Below are positions 12,957 to 63,744 of a stretch of 64,000 nt of DNA, piece by piece. The stretch's first letter is position 1. The number at the start of each line of letters is the position of its first letter. Position numbers and translations under genes: made by a program. Source of the stretch: Bacteroidota bacterium (lineage in GTDB: Bacteria > Bacteroidota > Ignavibacteria > UBA10030 > SZUA-254); the NCBI GenBank assembly GCA_035635475.1, contig DASQAZ010000117.1, forward strand, positions 21,988 to 85,987. Direction: 5' to 3'. The notes beneath the pieces are model-generated. The model worked only from the letters and a program-made list of their open reading frames with translations. It was not told where the DNA came from and did not search any database.

Positions 12957-12962
12957 CCAGGC

Positions 12963-13901
12963 ATGCCTCAGTCACGTTTTCCCCGAGTTTCGATCGTCGG
13001 CGCCGGTGCCGTCGGCTCTTCGATCGGCAGGGCGCTCTTCGAGAAGGGGTATCCGATCGCATCCGTCATCAGCCGGACGGGCGATCGTGCGATCGCGCTC
13101 GCCCGTTCGGTGAAATGCAGCCGGGTTTCAACCCAAATCGGCGACGTTGCCCCGGAGAGCGAGTGCATCCTTCTCGCCGTCTCCGACGGCGCCCTTCCCG
13201 CGGTCGCGGGACAGCTTTCAAGGCTGCGCTCCCTCAAATTCAGGAAACTGTTCGCCGTTCACTGCTCGGGCGTGTATGCTGCTGACGTTCTGGAACCATT
13301 GAGGCGGCGGGGGGTTCTCGTCGCGTCCATGCATCCGATTCAGACGTTTCCCTCCGGCCGGCACGCGCATCAGCGGCGGACTCCTCTTCGCGGGATTTAC
13401 TACGGAATTGAAGGGGAGCCTGAGGCACTCAAGCGCACGAAGCGGCTGGTCGATGATCTTGAGGGCAGAGTAGTCGTTATAAAGAAGGAGATGAAACCCC
13501 TCTACCATGTCATTTGCGTTATGGCGTCGAATTACATGCTGGTGTTCCTCAATGCGATCGAGGAGCTGACGAAAATCCTGAGCGTACAGCCGGGATGGAC
13601 GGAAATCTTCGGCCCCCTGATGACCGCCACGATGGAAAACGCCGTAAAGCAAACGGCGGCAGCTTCGCTCACAGGTCCGATCGTACGCGGTGATTTGTCG
13701 ACCGTCGATCTTCACCTCCGCGCACTCTCCCGTTATGCGCCCGAATTTCTGCCGCTCTATACAATGGGCGGAATCGAAGTCGCGCGGATTGCCGGCATGC
13801 GAGGGAGTATGAGCCGCGGTGAGTTCAACGGCGTCATCGCCCGGTTCAGGCGGTTCCTCAAGAGCAATCCATTCACCAACAAACGGAAGGCGAAGCGTTG
13901 A
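12963..13901 (+). CDS. Rossmann-fold NAD(P)-binding oxidoreductase-like protein (DUF2520-type, ProC/F420-dependent reductase-like N-terminus)
   Basis: N-terminal dinucleotide-binding motif VSIVGAGAVGSSIGRAL. Length ~310 aa. Family assignment is from memory of DUF2520 architecture. Confidence 0.5.
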   Translation: MPQSRFPRVSIVGAGAVGSSIGRALFEKGYPIASVISRTGDRAIALARSVKCSRVSTQIGDVAPESECILLAVSDGALPAVAGQLSRLRSLKFRKLFAVHCSGVYAADVLEPLRRRGVLVASMHPIQTFPSGRHAHQRRTPLRGIYYGIEGEPEALKRTKRLVDDLEGRVVVIKKEMKPLYHVICVMASNYMLVFLNAIEELTKILSVQPGWTEIFGPLMTATMENAVKQTAAASLTGPIVRGDLSTVDLHLRALSRYAPEFLPLYTMGGIEVARIAGMRGSMSRGEFNGVIARFRRFLKSNPFTNKRKAKR

Positions 13902-14965
13902 AAGCCCTCATCACAAGCGGGGGGCGCGGGACGAGACTGCGCCCGCTCACCCATACGCAGAATAAGCATCTGATCCCGATCGCGAACAAACCGATACTCC
14001 ACTATGCAATCGAAGCGGCGGTCGATGCAGGGATCAGGCAGATCGGAATTGTCTGCAACGCCGACAGCGACGAAGTCCAGCGATCGATCGGCAACGGAAA
14101 GCAGTGGGACGCAAAGATAACGTACATTCGGCAGAAGGCCCCCCTGGGATTGGCGCACGCCGTAAAGATTTCTCAGAATTTTATCCGGAATGACAAATTC
14201 ATTTTCTATCTCGGCGACAATATGGTGGTGGGCGGCATCAAGCGGTTCATCGATGAGTTCGACCGGAGCGACTCCAACTGCTTCTTGACGCTCGCCAAGG
14301 TGAAGGACCCGGAACGATTCGGCGTGCCCGAGATCAAACGCGGCAAGATCGTCCGTGTTGAGGAAAAGCCGGCGAAACCGAGAAGCCACTTCGCGGTCGC
14401 CGGGATTTACCTCTACGACCGCCATATCTTCGAAGCAACAAAGCATATCAGGCCGAGCAAGCGTGGAGAGTTGGAGATCTCCGATGCGCACCAGTACATG
14501 ATCGACAAAGGATACAAGATCGGATACAGCGAAATTACCGGCTGGTGGAAAGACACGGGCAAGCCATCGGATTTGCTCGAGGCGAACCGGATGGTTCTCG
14601 ACAGCCTCGAGGCGAGAATCGACGGCGCCGTTGACAAGTCGTCCACCGTCGCGGGGAAAGTCGTACTGGAAAAGGGAGCGCGCCTGATCAACAGCGTCGT
14701 ACGGGGCCCCGCGATCATCGGGAAAAATTGCACGATCGAGAATAGCTATGTTGGGCCGTTCACTTCGATCGGCGACGGGACGCAGATACGTAATTCCGAG
14801 GTTGAGTACAGTATCGTCCTCGGGGACTGTAAGATACTCAACGTCCGGATCCGGATCGAAGGGAGCATTCTCGGCAACGACGTGGAAATCGTTGATGCGA
14901 TGGGCAAGCCTCACGTTCACAGATTTATGATCGGCGACCAGAGCCGGGTGGAAGTGGCATGGTGA
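13898..14965 (+). CDS. long-form glucose-1-phosphate thymidylyl/nucleotidyl-transferase (RmlA-like with C-terminal left-handed β-helix)
   Basis: N-terminal signature KALITSGGRGTRLRPLTHTQNKHLIPIANKPIL. C-terminal hexapeptide-repeat-like region (GKNCTIENSYVGPFTSIGDGTQIRNSEVEYSIV). Confidence 0.75.
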   Translation: MKALITSGGRGTRLRPLTHTQNKHLIPIANKPILHYAIEAAVDAGIRQIGIVCNADSDEVQRSIGNGKQWDAKITYIRQKAPLGLAHAVKISQNFIRNDKFIFYLGDNMVVGGIKRFIDEFDRSDSNCFLTLAKVKDPERFGVPEIKRGKIVRVEEKPAKPRSHFAVAGIYLYDRHIFEATKHIRPSKRGELEISDAHQYMIDKGYKIGYSEITGWWKDTGKPSDLLEANRMVLDSLEARIDGAVDKSSTVAGKVVLEKGARLINSVVRGPAIIGKNCTIENSYVGPFTSIGDGTQIRNSEVEYSIVLGDCKILNVRIRIEGSILGNDVEIVDAMGKPHVHRFMIGDQSRVEVAW

Positions 14966-48230: not shown

Positions 48231-51200
48231 ATGAAACGCATTGTTGCGCTTTTTGCGGCTCTGATGGTGCTGAGCCATTTCGCTTCGGCGCAGGTGACGC
48301 CGTGGCAGTGGGTTAATCCCCTCCCCCAGGGAAATCTCCTGAACAGCATCTGGGCGTTCAGCACCGACACGGCGGTTTCCGTCGGCGAACTGGGAACTAT
48401 ATTAAAAACGTCGAACGGCGGCATGACCTGGAGCGTGCAGTTCAACGCTGCGGGGATTACCGACCAGTTGTTCGCAGTGCAGTTCGCCACGAGCACCATC
48501 GGGTGGGCGGCGGGGGGATCCGGGAGGATTTTGAAAACGACGGACGGAGGGATCACCTGGGACATCCAGAACCCGCTCGTACCGAATGACCTCTACTCGA
48601 TTGATTTTGTATCGCCGACCACAGGATGGACATGCGGATTCCAGGGTGCGATTCTCAAAACAACCAATGGCGGTTTGAACTGGACCCCGCAGAACAGCAC
48701 CTCAACTTCCACGCTCTATTCCCTCTACTTTTTAACACCGACCACCGGATGGGCCGTGGGAGTCGGGGGTACAATATTGAAAACGACCGACGCCGGAACT
48801 ACCTGGGCGCAGGAAACAAGCGGAACAACCCAGCCGCTGTTCTCAGTCTACTTTACTTCCCCCTCGGTCGGTTTTGCCGTGGGGGCGTTTGGATTGATGT
48901 TCAAGACGAGCAATGGAGGAGCGACCTGGATACCGCTGACGAGCGGCACGAATCTCAGTTTGTTCGGACTCCAGTTCGCGTCGTCGTTGAATGGCTGGGT
49001 CATCGGAGAATACGGGACGATCATCAAGACCACGAATGGGGGGGTCTCCTGGTTCGCCCAGGCCGGCCAGACTTTCAACGACCTGTTCGGCGTGCGATTT
49101 ATCTCAACCACAACCGGCTGGGCGGTGGGAGATTTCGGGACGATGATCAAGACGACTGACGGGGGCACAACCTGGACCCCCCAGTCGAACGGAATCAAGA
49201 ACACCATCGCTGCGATCTCTTTTCCCAGCGTCAGCGTCGGTTACACGGCCGGGGATATCGGGACGATCGCAAGTACGACCGATGGCGGACGGACTTGGAC
49301 CCAGCTGAACAGCGGATCGTTCCGACCCTTGTGGGGCGTCGACTTCATCAGCACCACAACCGGCTGGGTGGTGGGCGACAGCGCAACCATTCTCAGGACC
49401 ACAAATAGCGGATTCTCATGGTCGGTGCAGCACAGCCACACTGATCCAAGCCTGTACTCTGTCTCTATGATAAATTCCACTACCGGATGGACCGTGGGAG
49501 ATTTTGGGACAATTCTCGCAACCAGCAACGCCGGGATCACCTGGACGCCGCAAGTTGCCAACACGACGCAATCGCTTCTCCGTGTTAAGTTCGCGGATGC
49601 GACGACCGGCTGGACGGTCGGCTACGGCGGAACGATTTTCAAGACAACCAACGGAGGCACCACATGGACGCCTCAAACCAGCGGAACCACACAGCCGCTC
49701 TATTCCCTGGAGGTGATCAGCCCCTCCACCGCCTACGCGGGAGGCGACTTCGGTACGCTGGTCCATACGACCGACGGCGGGGCGACATGGACCACCCAGA
49801 CAACGAATACGGACGCGACTCTTTATGGCCTCTCGTTCTATTCGCCGTCCGTAGGGTTCGCCGCCGGAGACGTCGGTACAATTCTGTACACGGCCGACGG
49901 GGGTGCAACCTGGACGCTGCCCTACAGTCCGACAGTGAATCCGCTCTTCGAAGCTCAGGTCGTAAAATCCGGAACGGGAGGAGTCGTATTCGCGGCGGGA
50001 ACCGGGGGAACGATCATCTGTGCCGCCATCTCCCCTCTTCCGATCCGGTCCTGGACCGGTGCATTCGATTCGTTGTGGACAAGCCCCGGAAACTGGAGTC
50101 CGGCAGGAACCCCCATCAAGGGTGACAGCGTCGTCATCCCTTTGACCGCGAACAATCCGGTCCTTCGTGCTGTGGTACAGGAAATCAACCTGGGGGGTTT
50201 GTCGATTGCCGCGGGTGCGAATCTGACCATCGGCGCGGGATTGTCACAGCTCATCGTCAAGGGAAGCATCAGCATATTCGGCACGCTCAACATCGAAGCC
50301 AATGCTTCGCCAAAAATCACCGTGGGGGGTAACTTCTCCACCGTCGTCGGCGGTGCGTTCAATCCGGGAAATTCAACAATTGTCTTCACGGGCCCCGGAC
50401 AGATCAAAGGCACGTTCAACGACATCGTCCTGAAAGAAAATGCGGTCGTGCAGACGGGCGGCAATGTCACCGTGAGAGACAACATCACCCTGCTTTCAAA
50501 TCTTCTTCAGCGGCAGGGCGATACGCTCACAATATTGAACTCCAGTCCGGGTTCGTTTCAAGGTCCGGCATTCGTCACCGGCGGAACGGTGAAGAGAGCG
50601 CTGCGGACCGGATCGGTCGACCAGTACCGTTTCGAGAGCCCGGCCACATTTTTGCGCTTTTACGGCGTCGGAACTCTTCCGGATACAGTCCTGATGACGA
50701 CCTTTCCCAACGTCTTTCCCCCCGGCCTGCCCGACTCACTGTTCGTGAAGCGATACTACACGATCACCGCGCTTGGCGGCAGCAATTATCAGGCTAGCCT
50801 CTCTCTGCGTTACGACAGCGTCGAATCTGCGATCCCAGTCAACGAATTGTCCCTCTTTCGCGACTCAAGCGGCGTGATTTTTAATATGGGAAGCTCGGAC
50901 TATCTCGACAGCGACGTCGTGGCAATTTCTCTCGACTCCGTCAGGAGTTTCTCCAAATGGTACCTCGGGAGATCCGATTACTTTCCGGTGCACCCGTTCG
51001 CATTTCTGGATACACTGGTCCTGACCGATCAGGGCAGCCTGACCGGAAAGCTTGTCCTCGGGGCCCAGGCGGGTGCAAGCGACGGAATCGATCCCGCTTT
51101 CGGGGAAACAGAGCTGGCCGCGAGGCCCCCGGCGGGAACCTTTGACGTACGGTGGGTGATTCCGCCTACGCGGGGGACGAGCACCGACGTCCGGAACCTC

Positions 51201-52580
51201 CTCGCTCCTCCACAGCAGCGAGTGTACACATTCACGATCCAGCCCGGCGCTGGCGGTTATCCGTTCACCTTACAATGGAACAAGGCGGGCTTCTGTACGG
51301 GCACGTTTCTCCTGCAGGACCAAGGATCGCAGGGGGGCCTGTTCTCGGTGAGTATGAAAGCGCAGAATTCGTTCGTTGTAACGAACTCCTCGGTCGGCTC
51401 GCTTCAGATCGTCCATCTTCCCCCGGTCTACTATTCGTTCAACCGGTCCTGGAACATGGTGTCGCTGCCGCTCACGGCAACGAACGGCTCAAAGCGGAGC
51501 CAGCTGTTCCCGACTGCCATCTCACCGCTGTTCGGCTATAACGGCGGCTACTATATCAGCGACACGATGCGGAACGGGTTCGGGTACTGGTTGAGATTAT
51601 CGACGGCCCAGACCCTCGGCTTCGACGGGTTGTCTCGGTCCCGCGACACGATCAACGTCGCAGACGGTTGGAACATGATCGGATCGATCTCCTCCTCCGT
51701 TGCAAAAACAAGCATCGTACAGATTCCCCCGGGCATTGTCGGCTCAAACTATTTTGGGTTCTCGAGCTCCTACATCGTTGCCGACTCGATCACGCCGGCA
51801 CGGGGTTACTGGGTCAAAGTGCACGGTGCGGGAAAGCTCGTCCTCTCCTCCACGGGAGCGGCGAACAAGCAGATTGCGGAGAATCCGCCGGCGGACGAGC
51901 TGTCCAAACTCAACCTCATTGGGGTTGAAGATCAGCGGGGCGATCATCAGGCGCTGTACTTCGGTTCCCCGGGGGTGTCACCGGAGATCGCATCCTGGTA
52001 CGACCTGCCTCCGACTCCTCCCGATCGATTGTTCGACGCCCGCTTCCAGTCGGGGAGCATGGTTCAGTCTATCGCCGACACAGGCGGAGAGTTCGCCGTC
52101 CGCGTCCAGTCCGACGCTTTTCCGATCAGGCTTTCGTGGAACCTCCGGCAGAGCACAGTACACTCGGTCGCGTTTTTCGACGCTCGATCGGGAGCGCAAT
52201 TGTCTCAGGTGCTGACCGATCGGGAGGGCACCATCCTGATTAATGCGCCGTTCGCAGGTGTCATCGGGGTACGCGTGGGGACGTCGGGAGCGTTACCCCG
52301 GCAATTCGCGCTCCGCCAGAATTACCCGAATCCATTCAATCCGACGACATCGATTCGGTTTGACTTGCCCGTCGACGCGACGATTTCCCTCAAGGTCTAC
52401 GATCTCGTTGGCAGGGAAGTGGCCGTGCTTTCGGATAATGAAAAATATCCGGCAGGGTCTCACGTCCTCCGGTTGAACGGAGGTGGATTCAGCTCCGGCG
52501 TTTATTTCTACCGCCTTTCCGCGCATGGCGCCGACAAGCGGGAATTTCAACAGGTCAAGAAGCTCGTGATGTTGAAGTAA
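48231..52580 (+). CDS. giant secreted protein: signal peptide, 13 Asp-box/BNR (Ycf48-like) β-propeller repeats, β-helix/Ig-like middle region, C-terminal T9SS sorting domain
   Basis: Signal peptide MKRIVALFAALMVLSHFASAQ. 13 repeats of x-T-T-[DN]-G-G-x-T-W at ~44-aa periodicity. Pro-poor Gly/Thr/Asn-rich middle region. C-terminal Por_Secre_tail-like segment NYPNPFNPTTSIRFDLPVDATISLKVYDLVGREVAVL...GVYFYRL. Confidence 0.85.
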   Translation: MKRIVALFAALMVLSHFASAQVTPWQWVNPLPQGNLLNSIWAFSTDTAVSVGELGTILKTSNGGMTWSVQFNAAGITDQLFAVQFATSTIGWAAGGSGRILKTTDGGITWDIQNPLVPNDLYSIDFVSPTTGWTCGFQGAILKTTNGGLNWTPQNSTSTSTLYSLYFLTPTTGWAVGVGGTILKTTDAGTTWAQETSGTTQPLFSVYFTSPSVGFAVGAFGLMFKTSNGGATWIPLTSGTNLSLFGLQFASSLNGWVIGEYGTIIKTTNGGVSWFAQAGQTFNDLFGVRFISTTTGWAVGDFGTMIKTTDGGTTWTPQSNGIKNTIAAISFPSVSVGYTAGDIGTIASTTDGGRTWTQLNSGSFRPLWGVDFISTTTGWVVGDSATILRTTNSGFSWSVQHSHTDPSLYSVSMINSTTGWTVGDFGTILATSNAGITWTPQVANTTQSLLRVKFADATTGWTVGYGGTIFKTTNGGTTWTPQTSGTTQPLYSLEVISPSTAYAGGDFGTLVHTTDGGATWTTQTTNTDATLYGLSFYSPSVGFAAGDVGTILYTADGGATWTLPYSPTVNPLFEAQVVKSGTGGVVFAAGTGGTIICAAISPLPIRSWTGAFDSLWTSPGNWSPAGTPIKGDSVVIPLTANNPVLRAVVQEINLGGLSIAAGANLTIGAGLSQLIVKGSISIFGTLNIEANASPKITVGGNFSTVVGGAFNPGNSTIVFTGPGQIKGTFNDIVLKENAVVQTGGNVTVRDNITLLSNLLQRQGDTLTILNSSPGSFQGPAFVTGGTVKRALRTGSVDQYRFESPATFLRFYGVGTLPDTVLMTTFPNVFPPGLPDSLFVKRYYTITALGGSNYQASLSLRYDSVESAIPVNELSLFRDSSGVIFNMGSSDYLDSDVVAISLDSVRSFSKWYLGRSDYFPVHPFAFLDTLVLTDQGSLTGKLVLGAQAGASDGIDPAFGETELAARPPAGTFDVRWVIPPTRGTSTDVRNLLAPPQQRVYTFTIQPGAGGYPFTLQWNKAGFCTGTFLLQDQGSQGGLFSVSMKAQNSFVVTNSSVGSLQIVHLPPVYYSFNRSWNMVSLPLTATNGSKRSQLFPTAISPLFGYNGGYYISDTMRNGFGYWLRLSTAQTLGFDGLSRSRDTINVADGWNMIGSISSSVAKTSIVQIPPGIVGSNYFGFSSSYIVADSITPARGYWVKVHGAGKLVLSSTGAANKQIAENPPADELSKLNLIGVEDQRGDHQALYFGSPGVSPEIASWYDLPPTPPDRLFDARFQSGSMVQSIADTGGEFAVRVQSDAFPIRLSWNLRQSTVHSVAFFDARSGAQLSQVLTDREGTILINAPFAGVIGVRVGTSGALPRQFALRQNYPNPFNPTTSIRFDLPVDATISLKVYDLVGREVAVLSDNEKYPAGSHVLRLNGGGFSSGVYFYRLSAHGADKREFQQVKKLVMLK
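48318..50028 (+). repeat. in-frame tandem array of 13 ~132-bp Asp-box/BNR blade repeats inside the giant CDS
   Basis: Repeated ILKTT[DN]GGxTW...TGW(A/T)VG units visible in the translation at constant spacing. Confidence 0.7.
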
Positions 52581-53700: not shown

Positions 53701-54486
53701 TTAATCATATCGATCGAGCTTAAACCTTTCTCCGAGGTACAACCTCCTCGCCTCCGGGTCATTCGCCAGAAACTCCGCAGTGCCCGACTTGATGATTTTC
53801 CCCTCGAACATCAGGTAGGATCGGTCGGTGATTGAAAGTGTTTCGTGGACATTGTGATCGGTCACGAGAACGCCGATACCGCGGTTCTTCAAGTCGTGGA
53901 CGATCCGCATGATGTCCTCGACCGCGATGGGGTCGATGCCGGCGAATGGCTCGTCCAGCAGAATAAACTTTGGGTCCGTCGCCAACGACCTCGCGATCTC
54001 CGTGCGTCGCCGCTCACCCCCCGACAGCATGTATCCCTTGCTTTTCGCGACCTGCGTGATTCCAAAATCTTCCATGAGCTGGCCGCAGCGCGCCCGCTGG
54101 TCCGCCCGGGGTAGCTTCATTAACTCGAGAACGGCCAGGATGTTTTCCTCGACCGTAAGCTTCCGGAAGACGGACGCCTCCTGCGACAGGTAGCCGATGC
54201 CCATCCTGGCGCGTTTATACATCGGTTCCTTCGTAATCTCCCGGTCGTCGAGATAGACCTTGCCTGCCGTCGGTCCGATCATACCCACGATCATGTAAAA
54301 TGTCGTCGTCTTCCCGGCGCCGTTGGGTCCCAGCAAGCCGACGACTTCCCGCTGTTTCAGTTCCACGCTGACCGTGTCGACGACGAGACGCTTCTTGTAC
54401 CGTTTGCATAGTCCCTCCGATCGGAGCGTTCTCACGCCCTCCGCGGAATCCAGCGCACCGGCAGCCGTTGTTTCAGTCTCGCGCAT
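53701..54486 (-). CDS. lptB: LPS export ABC transporter ATP-binding protein LptB
   Basis: Aligns by eye with E. coli LptB throughout ([46 protein letters not shown]-terminal [10 protein letters not shown]). Start is uncertain (54486 or 54507). Confidence 0.85.
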
Positions 54487-54528
54487 CAATCGGTCTGTGC
54501 TCGGCACCGGGCGTCCGTTCGGTTGGAA

Positions 54529-55830
54529 TCAATTTGGAACTGCAATTCTCTTCGAGGGCCGGTTCTCACGCCAGCTAAATCCGGGCAGATTGTACTCGCT
54601 TTCCCGCCGCCTGATCATCTTCTCCGGGTAGTACTCCCCTTCCGGTCCGGCGATCACCTTCAACTTATCGATCCGGCCGTTCGCAAACACAATCGTGACA
54701 TGATCTCCGGAGGCTTTGTTCAGGCCGTTCGGTTTGCTTCCGTCGAAGAGATAATACAAGCTCGTGGCGGTCTTGTCCACATCGATACGCTGAATCTTAT
54801 TGTCGACAAACCGCATGGTAATCTCCTGCCCGGTCATTTGATCGAAACGGGTGGGGTACTGCGAGTCTCCGCGCGAAATCGCGTACGCGTTTCCCCGGAC
54901 ATAGACCGTCCCAAGCTTCCGGTTCCGGAGCTTGATGAAGATCGAATCGCCGGAGACCTGATTCTCCTGCGCCCCCTCGCCGGTGTACCAGAGAAACGGC
55001 GACCGCCGGAGGATGATGCTGTCGGCCTGCGTATACAATGTGCTCGCGCCCGCCTCCGCGGCGATCACGCCGCGGACGATTCTCACGCTGTCCCTGGCAA
55101 CGAGCTGACCGAGCGAGTCCTGGTAGGATTCCATGACACCGCTCGTCACAGCCAGCGTATCGAATGCTCCGTTCGAGGCGGTGTCGACCTGAAGCAGCCT
55201 CGGGTGATCCGTCATCCGGCTGTACCCCTTCTGCTTGAAATCCTCAAAATGGTTCCCGAATATCGTCATTCGATTGCGGCGGCCGGTGATTGTCACGTTA
55301 CCCCTTGCATCGGCTGACTGCTCCCGGCGGTCGTAGATCAGTTCGCGAGATTTGAGGATCGACTGCGTGTCGGAGACCGTCACATTTCCCCTGAAATAGA
55401 CTCGCTTTTGTTTCACAAAGTATTTGCCGTAATCGGCATTGAGAGTCGTATTCCGGTCTTCAACGGTTACCCGCTCGAAGGCTTCTGCAACTCTATCGTT
55501 GCCGTAATACATCCCGTGGCTGCACACCATTCTCATACTGCTGTCCCTCACCTCCACCTCGCCCTCGAGCTGGACAGTATTCGCCGTCAGGTACTGCAGG
55601 GCGCGTCTGCATGTCACGACGACGGACCCCTGCGTGAGTTTGACGTTCCCGATCAGCTCGCGCACCCGTTCCCCGTTGATTTCGCGGCCGGTCAGGCTGT
55701 CGGCATGGTTGAGCACCACAACCTTCTCGTCTTCCTGCGGCCTGGCAACACTCGGGAAGCAGAGAAGAAATCCCAACCCGATCGCAGCCCCGCGAAGATG
55801 ATTCCGGCGCAGCCAATCCGCCTCAACCAT
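54529..55830 (-). CDS. LptA/OstA-like periplasmic protein (long form, multiple OstA-N β-jellyroll repeats)
   Basis: Signal peptide. Repeated ...GNV.VT... β-jellyroll segments as in LptA/LptD-N. Positioned between lptC and lptB. Confidence 0.6.
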   Translation of the reverse strand: MVEADWLRRNHLRGAAIGLGFLLCFPSVARPQEDEKVVVLNHADSLTGREINGERVRELIGNVKLTQGSVVVTCRRALQYLTANTVQLEGEVEVRDSSMRMVCSHGMYYGNDRVAEAFERVTVEDRNTTLNADYGKYFVKQKRVYFRGNVTVSDTQSILKSRELIYDRREQSADARGNVTITGRRNRMTIFGNHFEDFKQKGYSRMTDHPRLLQVDTASNGAFDTLAVTSGVMESYQDSLGQLVARDSVRIVRGVIAAEAGASTLYTQADSIILRRSPFLWYTGEGAQENQVSGDSIFIKLRNRKLGTVYVRGNAYAISRGDSQYPTRFDQMTGQEITMRFVDNKIQRIDVDKTATSLYYLFDGSKPNGLNKASGDHVTIVFANGRIDKLKVIAGPEGEYYPEKMIRRRESEYNLPGFSWRENRPSKRIAVPN

Positions 55831-56377
55831 TCGCTTTTGACTGCCCGGTCACTTTGAAAATCGTGTAATGTTTTAACCCCTGGTCGGATTCCAGCCCGCG
55901 CCCCTCGATATGCTCGGTGGGAGAAAGGATATCGACGAAAGCGGGGGTCGTGACCCGTTGAGCGGCATTGCTCCAGTACAGATCCTCGGTTTTCAGGGTC
56001 GTGCCGCTGTCGGAAACAACGACAACGTTTTCATGGGCCTCGAAGTCGTGGGTTAAATCGTTCACTCTCCCCTTTTTCGCCGTCAAGACGGAGGTGTGAC
56101 GCTCGTTCTGATCATAAAAGTCAACAATAATCGTGGAGTCGAGGATCGTAAATCGCTGGTCGTTGAACATCGCGATATGACCCGCATGGAGGATCGCGGT
56201 CGTCTTCCCGGAGTCAGTGAACGTAATCGTTGCGTTCCAGCTTTCCTGCGAGGGAGTGCCAAGCCCCGAGCCAACGGCGGAAACGGAGGGCCGTACCTTC
56301 TCCTCCGAGCACGAAGAGAGCATCCACCAAAGCCCGGGGAGCAGAAAGAGGGGAAGCAAATCTTTCAGCTTTGGCAT
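55823..56377 (-). CDS. lptC: LptC-like lipoprotein
   Basis: Lipoprotein signal MLSSCSEE. ~180 aa β-jellyroll-type sequence. Operon position directly upstream of lptA. Confidence 0.55.
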   Translation of the reverse strand: MPKLKDLLPLFLLPGLWWMLSSCSEEKVRPSVSAVGSGLGTPSQESWNATITFTDSGKTTAILHAGHIAMFNDQRFTILDSTIIVDFYDQNERHTSVLTAKKGRVNDLTHDFEAHENVVVVSDSGTTLKTEDLYWSNAAQRVTTPAFVDILSPTEHIEGRGLESDQGLKHYTIFKVTGQSKANG

Positions 56378-56380
56378 CGA

Positions 56381-57367
56381 TTACGGAGTCTCTCCTCCCA
56401 ATCCGGCTTTTACCAGCTCATGCAGGTGAACCATTCCCACGGGCCGATGTTCCCCGTCTACGACGATGAGCTGGGAAATATTGTGCGCCTCCATTTCCTG
56501 GAGGGCGAGCGCGGCGAGGACGTTTTCCGGAATTGTTTTCGGATGTTTTGTCATCACCATCTCGGCGGTGATGTGTGTGAAATCGGTTGTCTTCTGGAGG
56601 AATCGGCGAAGGTCTCCGTCGGTGATAATGCCGATCAGCTTCCCGCCGCCGTCGACCACGCAGGTGGCGCCGAGGCGCTTCGACGTCATCTCGATGATGG
56701 CATCGCGGATCGGGATATCCCGTTTCACTCGGGGGACGGCGCCATCTTTCACCATCAATTCTTCTATCTTGAGAAGCAGCCGGCGGCCGACGCTCCCCCC
56801 GGGATGGTAGAGCGCGAAGTCTTCCACCGTAAAATTCCGTAGCTGAAGCAGCGCCATCGCCAGGGCATCCCCGAACACCAGTGCTGCGGTACTCGAGGAT
56901 GTGGGGGCAAGGTCATACGGGCATGCCTCCTCTTTGACCCCGGCATCGAGGATCATGTCGGAGATCAGCGCCAGTTTCGAGTTTGGATTTCCGACCATGG
57001 CGATGATCGGCACGCCGATGCGCTTGAACATCGGGAGCAGGCTGTGGAGTTCCGCCGTGTCGCCGCTTTTGGAAATACAAATAACAACATCCTCCTTCCT
57101 GACCATGCCCAGATCCCCGTGCAGGGCGTCGGAGGGATGGAGAAAGAGCGCCGGCGTGCCGGTGGAATTAAAGGTTGCTACAATTTTCCGGGCCACATTC
57201 CCGGATTTCCCCATTCCCGTAACAACGACACGTCCCCGGCACGCAAACAAGACTTCGACCGCCTTCGCAAAGTTTTGATCGATGCGATCTTCGAGCGCGG
57301 CGACCGCTTCCGCCTCGATCCGGACTACCTCCTTGCCTTTCTTGATGATATCCGCGGACTTGGTCAT
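56381..57367 (-). CDS. kdsD: arabinose-5-phosphate isomerase KdsD/KpsF (SIS + tandem CBS)
   Basis: SIS motif VVVTGMGKSGNVARKI. Two CBS domains in the C-terminal half. Confidence 0.85.
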   Translation of the reverse strand: MTKSADIIKKGKEVVRIEAEAVAALEDRIDQNFAKAVEVLFACRGRVVVTGMGKSGNVARKIVATFNSTGTPALFLHPSDALHGDLGMVRKEDVVICISKSGDTAELHSLLPMFKRIGVPIIAMVGNPNSKLALISDMILDAGVKEEACPYDLAPTSSSTAALVFGDALAMALLQLRNFTVEDFALYHPGGSVGRRLLLKIEELMVKDGAVPRVKRDIPIRDAIIEMTSKRLGATCVVDGGGKLIGIITDGDLRRFLQKTTDFTHITAEMVMTKHPKTIPENVLAALALQEMEAHNISQLIVVDGEHRPVGMVHLHELVKAGLGGETP

Positions 57368-58173
57368 TGTCTGGAAAAAAGTTTGAGTAAGCGTGCCGCT
57401 AATCCGCTGCTCTCTTTATGTTCGGGTTCGATAACGCCTTCGATGTGAACTTTCGTCTTGATCTTATTGTAGGTGAAGAAGGCATAGGTCAGATCGGCAT
57501 CGGAGTATTTTGATAAATCGGAGAAGAGGCGCCGTGACTCGAGCGCGATCCTCGGTTCGCGAATGTCCTTGTGGAGCATAAGATCGTTGTAATAATTCGT
57601 TACCGGAATCAATCGATTGACCCCGGTCGATGAATCATAAACCCAGACGCGCCTGTCCACGGTGCAGAAGGCGAGAACCAGCCGGTCCGCAACCGACGTG
57701 ACGGGATGCATGCTGACTTCCCTTACCGCCTCTCCGCATTGCGGGCATCGGCGGCCGGGAATCCACGTTGAATAGGTCCACCTCCTCACCTCTTCGAATT
57801 CCGATGGGATTTCTTCGGAATGGTGGCTGACAATTTCCACAGAAATCTGGCCGTCCAACACTTCCCGCATGGTCACGGATAGCGTGCCGGTCTTTGTCTC
57901 GATGGCGCCGTAGGCAAATACGGGCGCCAGCGGGTTGGATAAATCGGGTGTCAAGCCTTCGGGGCCAAGGATGATTTCCCCCTCCCCGCGCCTGCCCTTT
58001 CCAATCACCACCATGCCCCTGACCAGATCGTGATAGTGCCGGTAGCCGGGCCGATCGAGGGGAAGAATCCAATCCATCCACTCCCGTTCAAGAGGGGAGA
58101 TGGGCCTCGGATAACCCCGATCATCAGAACCGTCGCCCACCTTCACCTCGTCGGATGTTTCAATGAACGTCAC
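57364..58173 (-). CDS. hypothetical protein embedded in the Kdo/Lpt operon (contains a CPQC motif)
   Basis: 269 aa with no recognisable family. It overlaps kdsD by 4 bp and is flanked by kdsC. Cys pair CPQCGEAV. Confidence 0.5.
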   Translation of the reverse strand: MTFIETSDEVKVGDGSDDRGYPRPISPLEREWMDWILPLDRPGYRHYHDLVRGMVVIGKGRRGEGEIILGPEGLTPDLSNPLAPVFAYGAIETKTGTLSVTMREVLDGQISVEIVSHHSEEIPSEFEEVRRWTYSTWIPGRRCPQCGEAVREVSMHPVTSVADRLVLAFCTVDRRVWVYDSSTGVNRLIPVTNYYNDLMLHKDIREPRIALESRRLFSDLSKYSDADLTYAFFTYNKIKTKVHIEGVIEPEHKESSGLAARLLKLFSRQ

Positions 58174-58184
58174 TTCTGCACCGA

Positions 58185-58703
58185 TTAGATAAGATTTTTT
58201 GCTTTTAATATGAGGTCAACTACTTCCCGGACGGCTCCCCTTCCCCCGCGCGCTCTTGCGACGTAGTCAACAAGGTCCCGTACAACCGGGACAGCATCGT
58301 CCGGAGCGGCGCTCAGCCCGACCGTTTTCAGCAGCGGCACATCGAGTTCGTCGTCGCCGATGAAGCAGACTTCCTTTTGATTGAAGCCGAGGCGTCCGCA
58401 CACCTGGCGCGCGATAACCGTCTTGTCCTTCACTCCTTGATGAATCTCCGCAACGCCCAGCTCGCGGGCGCGTTTGGCGGTGGCTTTCGAGGAACGGCCG
58501 GAGACGATGGCGAACCTCAAGCCTTTTTGTGCCCCCCTCTCGATGCCGTACCCGTCATGAGCATCGAAAAGCTTGTACTCGCTCCCGTCATCCCCGTACA
58601 TGATCCGTCCATCGGTTAAGACGCCATCGACGTCCATGATGACCATCCGGATGGGTTTGCACTTGCCGCGCAGTTGCCGGCCGGTGGTTCGGTTAGATTG
58701 CAA
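58185..58703 (-). CDS. kdsC: 3-deoxy-D-manno-octulosonate 8-phosphate phosphatase KdsC (HAD family)
   Basis: KPIRMVIMDVDGVLTDG parallels E. coli ENIRLLILDVDGVLSDG. GDD...D HAD motifs. C-terminal GGRGAVREVVDLIL. Confidence 0.8.
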   Translation of the reverse strand: MQSNRTTGRQLRGKCKPIRMVIMDVDGVLTDGRIMYGDDGSEYKLFDAHDGYGIERGAQKGLRFAIVSGRSSKATAKRARELGVAEIHQGVKDKTVIARQVCGRLGFNQKEVCFIGDDELDVPLLKTVGLSAAPDDAVPVVRDLVDYVARARGGRGAVREVVDLILKAKNLI

Positions 58704-59517
58704 TCTTCTGCTTCACAATGTGATCGAGCGATACGACCTGCCGGAGCAACTCTTCGAGGCGGCTCAGTTTCAGTTGACTCGCGGCATCGCTGAGAGCACG
58801 GCGCGGATTTGGGTGTGTTTCGACGAACAGGCCGTCGATGCCGACCGCAACTCCGGCGCGGGCAATGGGGAAAATGAACTCTGGCTGGCCGTCACTCGAA
58901 TTCTTGCCGGCCCCGGGGAGCTGAACCGAATGCGTCGCGTCCAGAATCACGGGATACCCGGCGGTGCGCATGATGCTCAGCGATCGCATATCAACAACAA
59001 GATTGTTATAACCGAAGCTGGCCCCGCGCTCGGTCAGCATGACGTTCTTGTTCCCGGTCGCCTCCACTTTTTCCGCCTGATGGCGCATGTCCTGGGGAGC
59101 CATGAACTGACCCTTTTTGATATTGACCGGTTTGCCGGTTCGGCCGGCTGCGCGCAGAATGTCTGTCTGGCGGCAGAGGAATGCGGGAATTTGCAGGACA
59201 TCTGCTACCTCGGCAACCGGGGCCGCTTCCCGATCGGAATGAATGTCGGTGAGGACGGGGATATCGAATTCTTTCTTAACCTCCCACAGAATTGCGAGGG
59301 CTCTGTCCATCTCCAACCCCATGAATGCCAGGTTGCTTGTCCGATTGGCTTTCCGGTAGGAGGCCTTGAATATAAATGGAACGCGGAGCTTGTGCGCTAC
59401 CATCTGAATGCGCTCGGCGATCTTCAACGCCATCTCGCGTCCTTCAATGATGCAGGGACCGGCGATGAGGACAATCGGATTCCCCCCTCCGATTCTGATC
59501 TTGCCGATTCTAATCAT
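58693..59517 (-). CDS. kdsA: 3-deoxy-8-phosphooctulonate synthase KdsA
   Basis: Collinear with E. coli KdsA (FIFKASYRKANRTS, QIPAFLCRQTD, VMLTERGASFGYNNLVVDM, DATHSVQ). Start taken at MIRIGKIRIGGG. The ORF opens at 59553. Confidence 0.9.
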   Translation of the reverse strand: MIRIGKIRIGGGNPIVLIAGPCIIEGREMALKIAERIQMVAHKLRVPFIFKASYRKANRTSNLAFMGLEMDRALAILWEVKKEFDIPVLTDIHSDREAAPVAEVADVLQIPAFLCRQTDILRAAGRTGKPVNIKKGQFMAPQDMRHQAEKVEATGNKNVMLTERGASFGYNNLVVDMRSLSIMRTAGYPVILDATHSVQLPGAGKNSSDGQPEFIFPIARAGVAVGIDGLFVETHPNPRRALSDAASQLKLSRLEELLRQVVSLDHIVKQKIAI

Positions 59518-59665
59518 CCGGACTTCTGAGGCTGCCGATCTCTTCTCACGCATTCAAAGTACAAAAAAAAGCGAGGAATTTCAAAGAGGAGAGGCTGCAG
59601 GGCGGTTGCTCATCCTCAAGAATTCGATTGCTTATCTCACGGCTTCCGCGTATTTTGGTGCCACA

Positions 59666-60535
59666 ATGCTGGCCCTCAGGGCATACGCAAAGATCAATCT
59701 CGGGCTCCGGATACTCCGATTGCGAAATGATGGATACCACGATCTTGAGACGGTTTTTCATCGGATCAAACTCTTCGACGAACTCGAGCTTGAGAGGGCC
59801 GATACCATCTCGATCGAATGTTCCCCGGCGGAGCTCCCTGCGGACGAACGTAATCTCAGCTACAAGGCGGCATTGCTCTTGCGGCAGGAGCTCGCGCGAG
59901 GGGATGGAGTACACATCAAACTGAGGAAGAACATCCCTCTCGGCGCGGGACTGGGGGGAGGCAGCTCGGATGCGGCGTCCGCGCTCCTCGGGCTGCTTCA
60001 ACTCTGGGAGGCGGCCCTCCCCATCGATCGGCTGCGCTCAGTCGCGGCGCAGCTCGGCTCCGACGTGCCTTTTTTCCTGGAGAAGGGGATGGCGTATGCA
60101 ACCGGGCGAGGCGATGTTCTCGACTATTTTCACGTCGAGTTTCCCTACTGGATCGTCGTTGTCAGCCCAAACATCCATATATCGACAGCATGGGCGTATC
60201 AAGAGCTGAAGAACAGTAAACGCGCCATTGGAAATGACCGGGTGGCCCGGTCCTCTCTCAAAGATCTGCTGATCGAAAACCTCAATGACCCCCGGATGCT
60301 CCAAAATCTCATCCGCAATGATTTTGAACCGATCGTCCTGGGGACCCATGATGCCGTGGTTCGTCTCAAGCGGGGGCTCTACGACGCCGGTGCAGATTTC
60401 GCGCAGCTTTCCGGAAGCGGTTCGGCCGTCTACGGTCTTTTTAAAACCGAAGCTGCTGCTCACTCGGCAACAGAGGCATTCTCCGGGGAGCACCTGGTGT
60501 CCACAACCCCTCCCAACTTCGATCCGGACGTCTGA
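59666..60535 (+). CDS. ispE: 4-diphosphocytidyl-2-C-methyl-D-erythritol kinase IspE
   Basis: AYAKINLGLRILRLRNDGYHDLETVF and the GHMP kinase P-loop PLGAGLGGGSSDAAS. Start at internal Met 59666. The upstream part of the ORF overlaps kdsA antisense. Confidence 0.85.
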   Translation: MLALRAYAKINLGLRILRLRNDGYHDLETVFHRIKLFDELELERADTISIECSPAELPADERNLSYKAALLLRQELARGDGVHIKLRKNIPLGAGLGGGSSDAASALLGLLQLWEAALPIDRLRSVAAQLGSDVPFFLEKGMAYATGRGDVLDYFHVEFPYWIVVVSPNIHISTAWAYQELKNSKRAIGNDRVARSSLKDLLIENLNDPRMLQNLIRNDFEPIVLGTHDAVVRLKRGLYDAGADFAQLSGSGSAVYGLFKTEAAAHSATEAFSGEHLVSTTPPNFDPDV

Positions 60536-62556
60536 TGAATCTCCTGCCCGGCGCGAAGCTGCCGCTGGTCCTGGCCGTGATGATCTTTTCTCTTCCAAAA
60601 CCGGCTGGCTCCCAAGTATTGCCGTCCGACTCAACGAGGAGCGATACAACGCGGTCTATACGCCCGGATTCTCTCACGAAGTACCCGATCGCGATCGCGT
60701 TGGTGGGTTCGATCGACCGATCGATTGCACCCCGTCTTGTGATCGATGACTCAACGATGCACTTTTTGGACTACGAGTCGCTCGGCGACCTCGTCAGCGT
60801 CATGCCGGGGGCATTCGTCTTCGGATTGGGAAGCCCGGGGCAGTTTCAGGGGCTCACGCTGCAGGGGCTCGGCGCGCGGGATATTGCACTCCTCGGCGGC
60901 GGCACACTTCTCAATAATCCGTCCTCCGGAATGTACGATCTGAATCTTTTCTCTTTAGAAGACATTGGCCGCATTGAGATCGTCTCCGGTATCCGCTCAT
61001 TTCTCTACGGATTGAATTCCACCGGCGGGACAATTAATCTGGTGAACAAGAGCCTGAAGGCGCTCCATCCTAATTCTCACATACGATACAGCGAGGACGG
61101 ATACGGATACAGCGTGCTCGACGGCATGGTGAGTCAAAATATAAGCCGCGGTTTGAATATCACCGCCGGAATCCTGCACAGAACTGTCGATGGAAGATTT
61201 CTGAACACGGACGGTGATGCCTGGAGCGGCCGGGCGAGGCTGCGTTACAATTTGTCTGGCGAGGTGAGTCTCTTCGGTTCGGAAGTGTACAATCAGACCC
61301 GGCTCGATATGAACGGGGGGATCGACTCGACGACTCAGGCAGCGGATCGGTTTGATCGGATTCTGGCAAAGGTGCGGAATACGGACTCATATGAGAAGGT
61401 CTTCCGGCACGACATGCAACTCGGAATTGCCACGAACTTCCGGGCCGACTCGAGTGCGATCAACACGTTGACCTTTTACTATTCGACCAACCTCCGCGAA
61501 TACCGCGACGAGGAAAACCGGCCGACTCCGAACATGACGTTCCTCCAACAGAATCAATACTCGCGGTGGTATGGGTTGAAGTTGGCGGAGCGCCGGCTCG
61601 TGAACGATGTCGTGATCGACGCCGGTGCCGAGATTCAGCACCGGAGATTCCTCATCGGCCCGCCCGGAGAGGACGGTTCGACGACATTGGGGCGGGAAGT
61701 CGGATCGACTGACTACAGTGCCTTTGCGAAATCTGATGTGCACTTCGCGGAGATGCTGCGGGCTTCAGCGTATGGACGAGTCGAGAGCTATTTCGATCAG
61801 CACGAATTCTCGTTCGGCGCCGATGCAGCATGGAACCTATCCGACTGGTTGGAGCTATTCGGAGGTGCATCGCGATCCAGCCGGTTTCCCACAGCACAGG
61901 AATTGTACGGGACGCCGGCGGCGGACTCTTCGACGATTTCAGGTGAGTCGGAGCGCCATTTGCTCGTCGAGGGGGGACTGAGGTCACGCCCCGGCCGCGC
62001 ATGCGCGTTTGAATTAACCGCTTTCCGCCGGACCGTTGAAAATCCTATCGTCGTCCGGCAGTCGAACGCTCCGCCAGTGATGCCCACTTTCGAATTTTAC
62101 CGGGGCGAAACTCAATATCTGAGGGGGATCGACGGCTCTGCATCGCTCCGCTTCGGGAGTTTTCTTCTGGAAGGGAGCGCGCAGTATCTTGAAGTCCTCA
62201 CCGGAGATAATGTCGGGAATGAGTTTCCAAAATGGACAGGGCGCGGCGGGGCCTGGTTCCGGGATTCCCTTTTTGGGAGGCATCTGGATTTGAAGGCCGG
62301 CTTCCAGGGAAGGTTTTTCAGCTCGTTTCAAGGCCGTGGGTTCGATCAACTGGCCCAGATCGATGTTCCAACGTTGAATCCGGAAACGATTGATATGAAT
62401 GGGACCGTTGATTTTCTCCTTATCGCGCACATCGGCAGCGCGTACGTTCATCTGGTCTGGGAAAACTTGTTCGACCGGCAGTATATCATGCGAATCTTCT
62501 ATCCGATGCCCGCGAGGAATATTCGTTTCGGGATCACCTGGGATTTTCTGGATTGA
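60535..62556 (+). CDS. TonB-dependent outer-membrane receptor
   Basis: Signal peptide, plug-like N-terminal domain (IEIVSGIRSFLYGLNSTGGTINLV), and long β-barrel ending in aromatic ...FGITWDFLD. ATG overlaps the ispE stop. Confidence 0.7.
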   Translation: MNLLPGAKLPLVLAVMIFSLPKPAGSQVLPSDSTRSDTTRSIRPDSLTKYPIAIALVGSIDRSIAPRLVIDDSTMHFLDYESLGDLVSVMPGAFVFGLGSPGQFQGLTLQGLGARDIALLGGGTLLNNPSSGMYDLNLFSLEDIGRIEIVSGIRSFLYGLNSTGGTINLVNKSLKALHPNSHIRYSEDGYGYSVLDGMVSQNISRGLNITAGILHRTVDGRFLNTDGDAWSGRARLRYNLSGEVSLFGSEVYNQTRLDMNGGIDSTTQAADRFDRILAKVRNTDSYEKVFRHDMQLGIATNFRADSSAINTLTFYYSTNLREYRDEENRPTPNMTFLQQNQYSRWYGLKLAERRLVNDVVIDAGAEIQHRRFLIGPPGEDGSTTLGREVGSTDYSAFAKSDVHFAEMLRASAYGRVESYFDQHEFSFGADAAWNLSDWLELFGGASRSSRFPTAQELYGTPAADSSTISGESERHLLVEGGLRSRPGRACAFELTAFRRTVENPIVVRQSNAPPVMPTFEFYRGETQYLRGIDGSASLRFGSFLLEGSAQYLEVLTGDNVGNEFPKWTGRGGAWFRDSLFGRHLDLKAGFQGRFFSSFQGRGFDQLAQIDVPTLNPETIDMNGTVDFLLIAHIGSAYVHLVWENLFDRQYIMRIFYPMPARNIRFGITWDFLD

Positions 62557-62562
62557 GGAGGG

Positions 62563-63099
62563 ATGGAGAGCGCCAGAATGGTGGTTAGTGTTTTCGGCAG
62601 CTCCCGCCCCCGTCCGGGAGAACCCGACTATCAAACGGCGTACGAACTGGGAAAAATGCTCGCCGGCGCGGGCTACACGGTCTGTAACGGGGGATACGGC
62701 GGAATCATGGAAGCGAGCGCCCGCGGCGCACGTGAAGCGGGTGGTAGATCCATCGGTGTCGTCACCGATTTCTTTTCACGCCAGGCAAACCCGTACATCG
62801 ACGAAACGATTATTGAAGTCACGATCGTCGACCGACTGCAGAAGCTTCTCCACCTGGGCGATGCGTATGTGATCCTCAAAGGAGGCACCGGCACGCTTCT
62901 TGAGCTCGCGGCGCTCTGGGAGTTTATGAACAAAGGCATCATGCCCCGGAAACCGGCAATCGCGGTGGGTGACTTTTGGATGCCGATTGTGGATCGAATC
63001 GCTCAGGCGCTCATTCAAGAAGGGTCCGAGCGCGCAAGCCGGTATGTGACGGTCGTGGGTTCTCCCTCAGATGCTCTCCTCATTTTGGGTGGGGGATGA
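62563..63099 (+). CDS. LOG-family / TIGR00730-type Rossmann protein (putative nucleotide 5'-monophosphate nucleosidase)
   Basis: Motifs GGYGGIMEA and KGGTGTLLE. Confidence 0.8.
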   Translation: MESARMVVSVFGSSRPRPGEPDYQTAYELGKMLAGAGYTVCNGGYGGIMEASARGAREAGGRSIGVVTDFFSRQANPYIDETIIEVTIVDRLQKLLHLGDAYVILKGGTGTLLELAALWEFMNKGIMPRKPAIAVGDFWMPIVDRIAQALIQEGSERASRYVTVVGSPSDALLILGGG

Positions 63100-63328
63100 T
63101 ATCATGGAGGTGGTAAGTACCACCCTCGATAGTAAAGTAAAAACGCCACCCTTTTGTCACCCGGGCCTGCCAGATTCCGCGTGCTTCATCGTATTTTTTC
63201 GCGCGAAGGGAAGGATGACGGAGATCGCGGGCAAGAAAAAGCAGGCGACGATCGAATGCGCGCTGGATATTGGCCGGTGCACTCTCGTAGCTGCGAAGAA
63301 AGCGATCGCTGTAGCGAAAGTACATCAC
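63080..63328 (-). CDS. type II toxin-antitoxin system toxin, RelE/ParE superfamily
   Basis: 82 aa. RelE/ParE-like pattern ...RKGWRFYFTIEGGTYHLHDIIPHPK. It overlaps the upstream antitoxin gene by 4 bp. Confidence 0.7.
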   Translation of the reverse strand: MMYFRYSDRFLRSYESAPANIQRAFDRRLLFLARDLRHPSLRAKKYDEARGIWQARVTKGWRFYFTIEGGTYHLHDIIPHPK

Positions 63329-63597
63329 GAAGCTTTGCGTTTTCTTCTGCGCCGGGCGTGGGAGTGGAGGGAACGGATCGCTTGCTTGGCGGTCGCGAAG
63401 GGACCGTAAGATCGGCCTTTTCGATAATCTTCGATGCTTTCAGCAAGCCGCTTTTCAACGAGGGCTTTCGGTGTAAGGATCAAACGGTCCTCAACGAGTT
63501 CGATCTCCAGATAGTCCCCCGGAGAGAGACCGAGTTGGTCGTGGAGTTTTTTGGGGATCGCGACTTGGCGGCTCACCCCTACTTTGACAGCAGCCAT
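63325..63597 (-). CDS. AbrB/MazE/SpoVT-type antitoxin
   Basis: MAAVKVGVSRQVAIPKKLHDQLGLSPGDYLEIELVEDRLILTP is a swapped-hairpin AbrB-type domain. ATG 63597..63595 with AGGAG SD. The ORF-track extension to 63714 is not supported. Confidence 0.7.
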   Translation of the reverse strand: MAAVKVGVSRQVAIPKKLHDQLGLSPGDYLEIELVEDRLILTPKALVEKRLAESIEDYRKGRSYGPFATAKQAIRSLHSHARRRRKRKAS

Positions 63598-63637
63598 GGG
63601 GCACACTCCTTCTGATATTGTATTTTCATATAATTGT

Positions 63638-63666
63638 ATTATACGATATAAGACAGAGAGATGCAA
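63638..63666 (-). promoter_or_regulatory. σ70-type promoter of the antitoxin-toxin operon with overlapping palindromic operator
   Basis: Minus strand reads TTGCAT-17 nt-TATAAT. The -10 is part of the perfect palindrome TATAAT-TGT-ATTATA (63629..63643). Confidence 0.5.
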
Positions 63667-63744
63667 GAGCGGGTTGACTGGCCGACTCTGCATGGTCACG
63701 TTGGTGTCCGACAACCAAAGGAATTATCGGGGCTCCGGTATTGC

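Follow-up and report, generated by a model that had tools for sequence, protein, structure and literature searches.

A lineage-restricted protein family encoded between Kdo-synthesis genes of Ignavibacteria, a candidate membrane-tethered accessory factor of lipopolysaccharide assembly

The synthesis of 3-deoxy-D-manno-octulosonic acid (Kdo) and the export of lipopolysaccharide (LPS) are essential and intensively studied antibiotic targets. In Escherichia coli, genes of both processes lie in one cluster of the order yrbG-kdsD-kdsC-lptC-lptA-lptB, and LPS assembly is regulated by LapB (YciM), which sits on the cytoplasmic side of the inner membrane and combines an N-terminal transmembrane (TM) anchor and tetratricopeptide repeats (TPRs) with a Cys4 rubredoxin-type site. 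A different way of bringing a soluble protein to the membrane is employed by MinD and FtsA, namely a short, basic, amphipathic C-terminal helix that follows a flexible linker (in MinD, ...GFLKRLFGG). The Kdo branch itself is, to our knowledge, thought to comprise only four soluble enzymes plus a transferase, and we know of no dedicated non-enzymatic component of this pathway. Here, we describe gene X (57364..58173, minus strand), which is inserted into a Kdo/LPS operon on a stretch of 64,000 nucleotides (nt; the window, in whose numbering all positions are given) from a Bacteroidota bacterium of the Ignavibacteria (assembly GCA_035635475.1, contig DASQAZ010000117.1, positions 21,988 to 85,987 of the forward strand).

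As in the E. coli cluster, Kdo-synthesis genes are combined with lptC, lptA, and lptB in one transcription unit, which runs on the minus strand in the order kdsA-kdsC-X-kdsD-lptC-lptA-lptB, and KdsC, KdsD, LptC, and LptB are ordinary members of their families by NCBIfam cut-offs. The arrangement differs in that kdsA heads the operon (kdsA-kdsC-X-kdsD) and in that X, between kdsC and kdsD, is without E. coli counterpart. The operon is of a known kind, whereas the inserted X belongs to a previously undescribed family without detectable relatives. In the reading that we prefer, with a probability of roughly 0.4, X would be an accessory factor without catalytic activity, tethered to the membrane and connecting Kdo synthesis with LPS assembly there. 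It would be a cytoplasmic protein of ~250 amino acids (aa), in which two helices at the N-terminus are followed by a beta-rich core (with the Gly-rich hairpin and the motif WTYSxWxPG), a zinc-ribbon-like insert, a helical subdomain, a variable linker, and a basic amphipathic C-terminal helix. By this tail, the acidic body would be anchored to the inner membrane on its cytoplasmic side, where X may act as tether, scaffold, or sensor without catalysis of its own and may couple the soluble KdsA, KdsC, and KdsD, made from the same transcript, to membrane-bound LPS assembly. We arrive at this reading from the fixed slot of the gene, the stop/start overlaps, the pairing of an acidic body with a basic tail, the lack of invariant residues of a catalytic type, and a rate of evolution similar to that of Lpt proteins.

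X is a genuine gene, far beyond a chance reading frame, and its place in an uncharacterised, lineage-restricted family is documented by the list of open reading frames (ORFs), its homologues, the ratio of nonsynonymous to synonymous substitutions (dN/dS), and an AlphaFold2 (AF2) model. The 269-aa ORF was found exactly where the original prediction had placed it, starting with GTG 11 nt past the TAA stop codon of kdsC and overlapping kdsD by 4 nt (TGA of X and ATG of kdsD in ATGA, 57364..57367, minus strand; the 3' end reads CAATGA). Against the closest locus for which DNA was available (L005), a dN/dS of 0.32 points to purifying selection, albeit more relaxed than in the operon neighbours (kdsA 0.10, kdsC 0.10, kdsD 0.06, lptB 0.08, and lptC 0.19 in the same comparison). 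Together with the deep conservation of X, this bears out the coding potential that had been named as a point on which the idea might fail. The exact start is less certain, as most homologues begin 11-20 residues further in, codons 10 and 12 offer alternative GTGs in frame, and residues 1-16 of the AF2 model have a predicted local distance difference test score (pLDDT) below 50. By alignment, pLDDT, and sequence, residues 1-20 (58114..58173, minus strand) form an extension of low confidence and poor conservation. On the other hand, a length of 269 aa is shared by the closest relatives (76-86 % identical).

A search of 5.8 billion proteins returned 223 homologues of X at E<=1e-3; those that bear a name are all called "hypothetical protein", none carries a Pfam domain, and the sources are mostly Ignavibacteria, Ignavibacteriae, or Bacteroidota metagenome-assembled genomes (MAGs). 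An exhaustive HMMER search of 1.84 billion cluster representatives (50 % identity) with a profile of 32 core-clade sequences yielded only 176 proteins of the family, nearly all of them 225-270 aa long or fragments, with neither fusions nor members of any other family, and a broader profile of 81 sequences (A3) found 244 proteins, all of them X family and nothing outside. In addition, the gene is present in at least 150 GTDB species genomes, a lower bound since the genomes were scanned with two peptide patterns characteristic of the core clade. Among the divergent members, one (WP_437345210.1) stems from Melioribacter sp. OK-6-Me, the only cultured source, and one from a MAG that bears the label Chlorobiota. 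On the strength of these searches, the family is closed and restricted to Ignavibacteria and allied Bacteroidota lineages. A literature search returned nothing on the X family or on Kdo genes in Ignavibacteria.

The genomic context of X is highly constant across loci, all of which were collected through X itself (by individual homologues and a genome scan), with neighbours placed by tblastn with the proteins of the window. In essentially every locus long enough to judge, X immediately precedes kdsD and comes after kdsC or kdsA; it occupies this slot in L001-L084, and members only 27-37 % identical retain it. Divergent loci show kdsA-kdsC-X-kdsD-lptC-lptA-lptB (P0202, L087) or kdsA-X-kdsD-lptC followed by unrelated genes (P0247, L085, and P0150, L089), so that the invariant core is kdsA-X-kdsD(-lptC). 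Exceptions are rare (L068 is without kdsD, and L048 and L072 have larger gaps), and no member in another gene context was seen among 87 loci. The original prediction had proposed a comparison of synteny across the Fibrobacterota-Chlorobiota-Bacteroidota (FCB) group. This comparison, the other point on which the idea might have failed, revealed the same slot in 87 kds/lpt loci, but limited to Ignavibacteria and allied lineages rather than extending to the FCB group in general. In ~17 loci X directly follows kdsA with no kdsC detectable between them (such loci include L025, L029, L036, L040, L041, L043, L047, L058, L074, L076, L077, L083, L085, and L089).

The junctions are equally tight. The gap between X and kdsD has a median of 1 nt, with an overlap at 41 of the 87 junctions (27 of them of the same -4 type, ATGA) and a distance of <=30 nt at 79, and the gap between kdsC and X has a median of 2 nt. 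The operon membership and probable translational coupling originally derived from this one locus are thereby supported family-wide. Neither an excess of terminators or promoters above chance nor any Rfam RNA element was found around X.

Structure prediction, which had been suggested as a check, gave a confident AF2 model (pLDDT 88, predicted template modelling score 0.81, with the family alignment), yet no fold match. Ten consecutive beta-strands span residues 55-189 and helices occur only at the ends (27-36, 42-52, 191-239 including a helix at 191-201, and a terminal helix at 258-267), with a low-confidence stretch at 240-257. Conservation was assessed over 199 full-length members, down to 21 % identity. 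The family's most conserved motif is W132-TYSTW-IPG140 (WTYSxWxPG; 57754..57780, minus strand), with weighted conservation of 0.99 for W137, 0.91 for S135, 0.88 for P139, 0.86 for G140, and 0.81 for W132; W137 is invariant in the divergent set. Between strands 55-59 and 66-70, a Gly-rich beta-hairpin loop (G58-K-G-R-R-G-E-G-E66, consensus GxGR[RWF]GxG; 57976..58002, minus strand) is moderately conserved (0.72-0.77 weighted), reading GRRG in 126 of the 199 members, GRWG in 23, and GRFG in 17; its arginines are not conserved in divergent members. The C-terminal helical subdomain opens with P190-VTNYYNDLM199 (PVTNFYNELM in the alignments A1/A2; 57577..57606, minus strand), at helix 191-201. Many residues are invariant in the core clade, including G60-R-R-G63, C143, C146, and C170, and the best-conserved positions family-wide are E29, L37, P38, Y44, A87, G89, W132, S135, W137, P139, G140, P144, R151, W177, P190, F217, D225, A231, Y235, and N236. 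These top positions are mostly aromatic, Gly, or Pro, and the 81-sequence alignment with its diverse members contains no invariant column.

The CPQC motif, the only feature that the original prediction could name in an otherwise domain-free protein, is indeed present (residues 143-146) and appears to be one half of a zinc-ribbon-like insert (57655..57747, minus strand), in which the knuckles C143-P-Q-C146 and C170-T-V-D173 sit at hairpin turns amid the strands 151-157, 165-170, and 175-180. The ligands would be three Cys and one Asp rather than four Cys/His, and the Cys3-Asp site is probably a structural metal site, as predicted from the sequence. At positions 143/146/170/173, C-C-C-D is found in 119 of 199 members and C-C-C-N in 7, the remainder having Ser/Thr/Ala; counted by locus, the Cys3 site is kept in ~47 of 84 and lost in ~37, and many loci whose X is 43-51 % identical to the query read S-T-A-E. 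As the ligands are lost in ~40 % of the family, the CPQC site is clade-specific and dispensable and does not define the family. A redox or thioredoxin-like role of CPQC was rejected because the motif is not conserved across the family. Likewise, X as a metallochaperone for the metal-dependent KdsA was rejected, since the KdsA Cys occurs in every locus and the Cys3 site of X in ~47 of 84, without co-variation.

The C-terminal tail is defined by its physico-chemical character. Residues 255-269 (SSGLAARLLKLFSRQ; 57367..57411, minus strand) comprise the helix 258-267 and constitute a predicted basic, amphipathic membrane-targeting tail, preceded by a variable low-confidence linker without conserved columns (residues 240-254, pLDDT 63-68; 57412..57456, minus strand). 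Over the last 12-16 residues the sequence varies among members and the character stays constant, with hydrophobic residues interleaved with Lys/Arg and no acidic ones (for example, LAARLLKLFSR, LLKRFANVLRR, FLKKLFS, or FFKKIFGK). The mean net charge of the last 16 residues is +4 (>= +2 in 97 % of members), and the body minus the tail is acidic, with a median isoelectric point (pI) of 5.8. Family-wide, the best 11-mer of the tail has a hydrophobic moment of 0.66, whereas the other blocks of 20 residues in these proteins reach 0.44. A combined criterion (>=4 large hydrophobic residues, >=2 Lys/Arg, no Asp/Glu, and a moment >=0.55) selects 71 % of X tails and 0-3 % of those of KdsA, KdsC, KdsD, LptB, and IspE from the same loci. 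Neither a TM segment nor a signal peptide was detected in X (maximum Kyte-Doolittle value 1.02), and the protein looks soluble and cytoplasmic by its sequence. By analogy with known membrane-targeting helices, the tail may bind the membrane.

In its divergence, X resembles the non-enzymatic LptA and LptC, unlike the Kds enzymes: the mean pairwise distance is 0.91 for X, 0.99 for LptA, 0.72 for LptC, and 0.32-0.46 for KdsA, KdsD, and LptB. Over 54 loci, the distance matrix of X correlates with those of lptA (0.81), kdsD (0.75), lptC (0.71), and lptB (0.71), and with that of kdsA at 0.20. The decoupling of kdsA was seen throughout this set (r 0.14-0.25 with X, kdsD, lptC, lptA, and lptB, as compared to 0.65-0.81 among the others); it might stem from horizontal replacement or rate heterogeneity, or be artefactual because the sequences were based on high-scoring segment pairs.

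Searches for known relatives returned little. As had been claimed, X contains no recognisable domain, with nothing in Pfam and NCBIfam beyond sub-threshold zinc-finger hits (TIGR03831, E 0.099, 12.9 bits with a cut-off of 20.2; DUF7576, E 0.29), and scans of X and further members against Pfam, NCBIfam, and PADLOC gave nothing consistent; zf-FPG_IleRS was matched by no more than 2 of 32 members. Neither X by itself nor the family profile retrieved anything when searched against PDB sequences. Foldseek with the X model found no match in the PDB at E<=0.001 (best E 0.017, template modelling (TM) score <=0.18), and recurrent weak local matches were to N-terminal beta-barrels of F1-ATPase (~78 columns) and to NrdR. 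Matches in BFVD to viral methyltransferase domains (E ~2e-3) were not credited (TM score 0.17, root-mean-square deviation ~19 Å). Given a family that is confidently modelled without a detectable relative, X may represent a new fold.

Known proteins of the pathway were also sought. Neither X (Pfam/NCBIfam, E<=1) nor 32 members (E<=5) matched a KdsB/cytidylyltransferase profile, the core is not Rossmann-like, and no nucleotidyltransferase was among the Foldseek PDB matches; X as a replacement of KdsB was judged unlikely on the lack of nucleotidyltransferase similarity and of a Rossmann-like pattern. A kdsB gene was not found by tblastn in the window ORFs tested and in ~1.2 Mb of +/-8 kb flanks, using an unverified E. 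coli KdsB query and no positive control, a result that speaks for these regions and not for whole genomes. X shows no match to KdsC-type phosphatases of the haloacid dehalogenase (HAD) superfamily, whereas KdsC next to it scores 162.7 bits, and it lacks a conserved Asp motif at its N-terminus. For the Kdo kinase KdkA or a kinase fold in general, there was no Pfam match, no kinase among the Foldseek PDB matches, and no invariant Lys/Asp set. Finally, TPRs were absent from X by Pfam, with a single weak PADLOC TPR match in 1 of 30 members (E 0.035).

How far do these data carry the accessory factor? The original prediction of a candidate LPS/Kdo factor has gained a conserved slot and purifying selection, but X is still a candidate whose link to Kdo/LPS is its gene context, and on this basis a role in LPS is plausible. 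In our reading, X would bind the membrane, lack catalysis, interact with Kds or Lpt proteins, and affect LPS. Several points weigh against this reading. We know of no precedent for a tether in the Kdo pathway, and the mirror-tree analysis names no partner of X (partial r 0.45 for kdsD and 0.49 for lptA). The hydrophobic moment alone fails to separate X tails from those of KdsA or KdsC, and the combined tail criterion is ad hoc. Moreover, a number of polar positions are fairly well conserved (E29, Y44, R61, E104, S135, R151, N186, N196, D225, Y235, and N236), so that an enzymatic or ligand-binding site is possible. A more specific version, which we hold only tentatively and consider somewhat doubtful, sees X as the founding member of a new-fold, membrane-tethered component of the Kdo branch that either tethers a KdsD/KdsA/KdsC complex or senses Kdo or LPS precursors and thereby sets flux. 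As a tether, it would assemble KdsD, KdsA, and KdsC close to the membrane, feeding Kdo to the membrane-bound transferase.

Among the alternatives, an enzyme is the one that the conserved polar positions bring to mind. X might be a new-fold enzyme of the Kdo/LPS pathway, possibly at the membrane surface, which we regard as less likely than the accessory factor but as a serious rival; candidate activities would be modification of Kdo or lipid A, an alternative Kdo 8-phosphate (Kdo8P) phosphatase, or a substitute for KdsB (cytidine monophosphate-Kdo synthetase). X does sit between two enzymes of a biosynthetic operon, a membrane tail would fit a lipid-linked substrate, and the moderately conserved Gly-rich hairpin with its Arg as well as the conserved R151, D225, E104, and N196 could belong to an active site. 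However, the family has no invariant residue, the weighted conservation of its charged positions does not go beyond 0.7-0.9, X evolves 3-5 times faster than the enzymes encoded next to it, and its predicted beta-rich core is not Rossmann-like and gives no HAD, nucleotidyltransferase, or kinase signal by sequence or Foldseek. The ~17 loci in which X directly follows kdsA without kdsC also speak for an enzyme, but the window has both kdsC and X, which is therefore not simply a replacement of KdsC. In a similar vein, kdsB is missing from the operon and was seen neither in the window ORFs tested nor in the flanks, although this search was confined to ~1.2 Mb of flanks and to the one unverified query without positive control.

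The zinc-ribbon-like insert raises the further thought that X binds nucleic acids and regulates transcription or translation of the kds-lpt genes. The CPxC...CxxD two-knuckle element is flanked by beta-hairpins, there are weak matches to YgiT, zf-FPG_IleRS, Zn_ribbon_TFIIB, and DUF7576 and, by Foldseek, to NrdR, and the X clade of the window has many conserved Arg. All zinc-finger matches are nevertheless under the curated thresholds, neither a helix-turn-helix nor another DNA-binding domain was found (Pfam, NCBIfam, 32-member scan), the GRRG arginines are not conserved in divergent members, and ~40 % of the family, among them members that share 43-51 % identity with the query, have S/T/A in place of the Cys ligands. 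With dispensable ligands and an acidic globular core (pI 5.8), we deem such a regulator very improbable. Only slightly better, and still improbable, are the prospects of a passenger gene whose function in the operon has nothing to do with LPS: an argument from gene neighbourhood can be misleading, but the kdsA/kdsC-kdsD slot is kept down to 21-37 % identity, also at loci that differ in lptA/lptB and in their outer flanks, stop/start overlaps are frequent at the junctions of X, and none of the 87 loci has X elsewhere, a depth of synteny that speaks against mere hitch-hiking. That the ORF is spurious could be argued from a GTG start without a clear ribosome-binding site and from a 148-aa ORF nested in X in an alternative frame of the same strand. 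With hundreds of homologues from 100 % down to 21 % identity, a confident AF2 model, and a dN/dS of 0.32, this view is already refuted and its probability next to nothing.

The neighbours of X in the operon agree with the identities assigned to them at the outset. All of them exceed a curated NCBIfam cut-off, save the LptA-like protein, which is identified by its Pfam OstA_2 domain alone. On the minus strand, kdsA (58693..59553; NF003543, 402.7 bits) encodes a Kdo8P synthase of the Cys/metal-dependent type; its residue 34 is the Cys of the motif AGPC, which we take to mark the metal-dependent class and which recurs in all of the related loci that were examined. It is followed by kdsC (Kdo8P phosphatase, 58185..58703; TIGR01670, 162.7 bits, cut-off 106.95) and, after X, by kdsD (56381..57367; TIGR00393, 325.1 bits), an arabinose-5-phosphate isomerase of the KpsF/GutQ family with one SIS and two CBS domains (Pfam). 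The export genes are lptC (55823..56377; TIGR04409, 68.3 bits), the lptA-like gene (54529..55830; 433 aa, OstA_2/LptD_N, PF13100 E 1.9e-14), and lptB (53701..54507; TIGR04406, 357.6 bits). The LptA-like protein measures 408-467 aa throughout the lineage (L001-L090) and shows OstA_2 plus LptD_N/LptC-like signals; LptA of E. coli is less than half the size of the protein here. Upstream of kdsA, a divergent pair on the plus strand (59408..62556) consists of a GHMP kinase gene (ispE-like) and a TonB-dependent receptor/Porin_10 gene, and this pair adjoins the operon in many loci (among L001-L024).

Elsewhere in the window, a plus-strand gene (48231..52580) encodes a 1449-aa protein with ~9 YCF48/BNR-type repeat stretches (motif TTDGG.TW) and a C-terminal Por/type IX secretion system (T9SS) sorting domain (PSII_BNR 1e-52, Por_Secre_tail 4e-6), probably a large beta-propeller protein that is secreted or displayed on the surface. 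On the minus strand (63080..63714), a 129-aa antitoxin of the MazE/AbrB type (Pfam 9.8e-10) overlaps by 4 nt with an 82-aa ORF without family match, likely a toxin-antitoxin pair. A homologue of AmmeMemoRadiSam system protein B (TIGR04336, 287.8 bits) is encoded within 12060..14965 (plus strand), and 3' of it lie genes for a DUF2520/Rossmann-like protein and a long-form RmlA glucose-1-phosphate thymidylyltransferase. A 257-aa ORF at 661..1434 (plus strand) has no NCBIfam or Pfam match and may or may not be a gene.

A bacterial class that keeps a fifth gene locked between Kdo enzymes over deep divergence points to an unrecognised requirement, which might concern localisation, the channelling of intermediates that are labile, or the control of flux. 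For the time being, the practical bearing is limited, since X comes from an environmental lineage that is difficult to work with and its role is a candidate one.

Among described systems, zinc ribbons (for example, those of the NrdR N-terminus, YgiT, and TFIIB) are akin to the putative metal site of X in that two knuckles are placed at hairpin turns around a small sheet; X differs in its fourth ligand, Asp or Asn, in the loss of ligands in ~40 % of the family, and in matches that all stay below threshold. With LapB, X would share the standing of a non-enzymatic factor of the LPS pathway at the inner membrane face with a Cys-based metal site, although the two are not homologous, X is without TM segment, and its Cys3-Asp site is dispensable. 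The nearest parallel to the tail is offered by MinD and FtsA: while the body of X is not homologous to theirs and the likeness is one of tail physico-chemistry only, X likewise carries a basic, acid-free, amphipathic helix at its very end, past a linker of low pLDDT on a soluble body.

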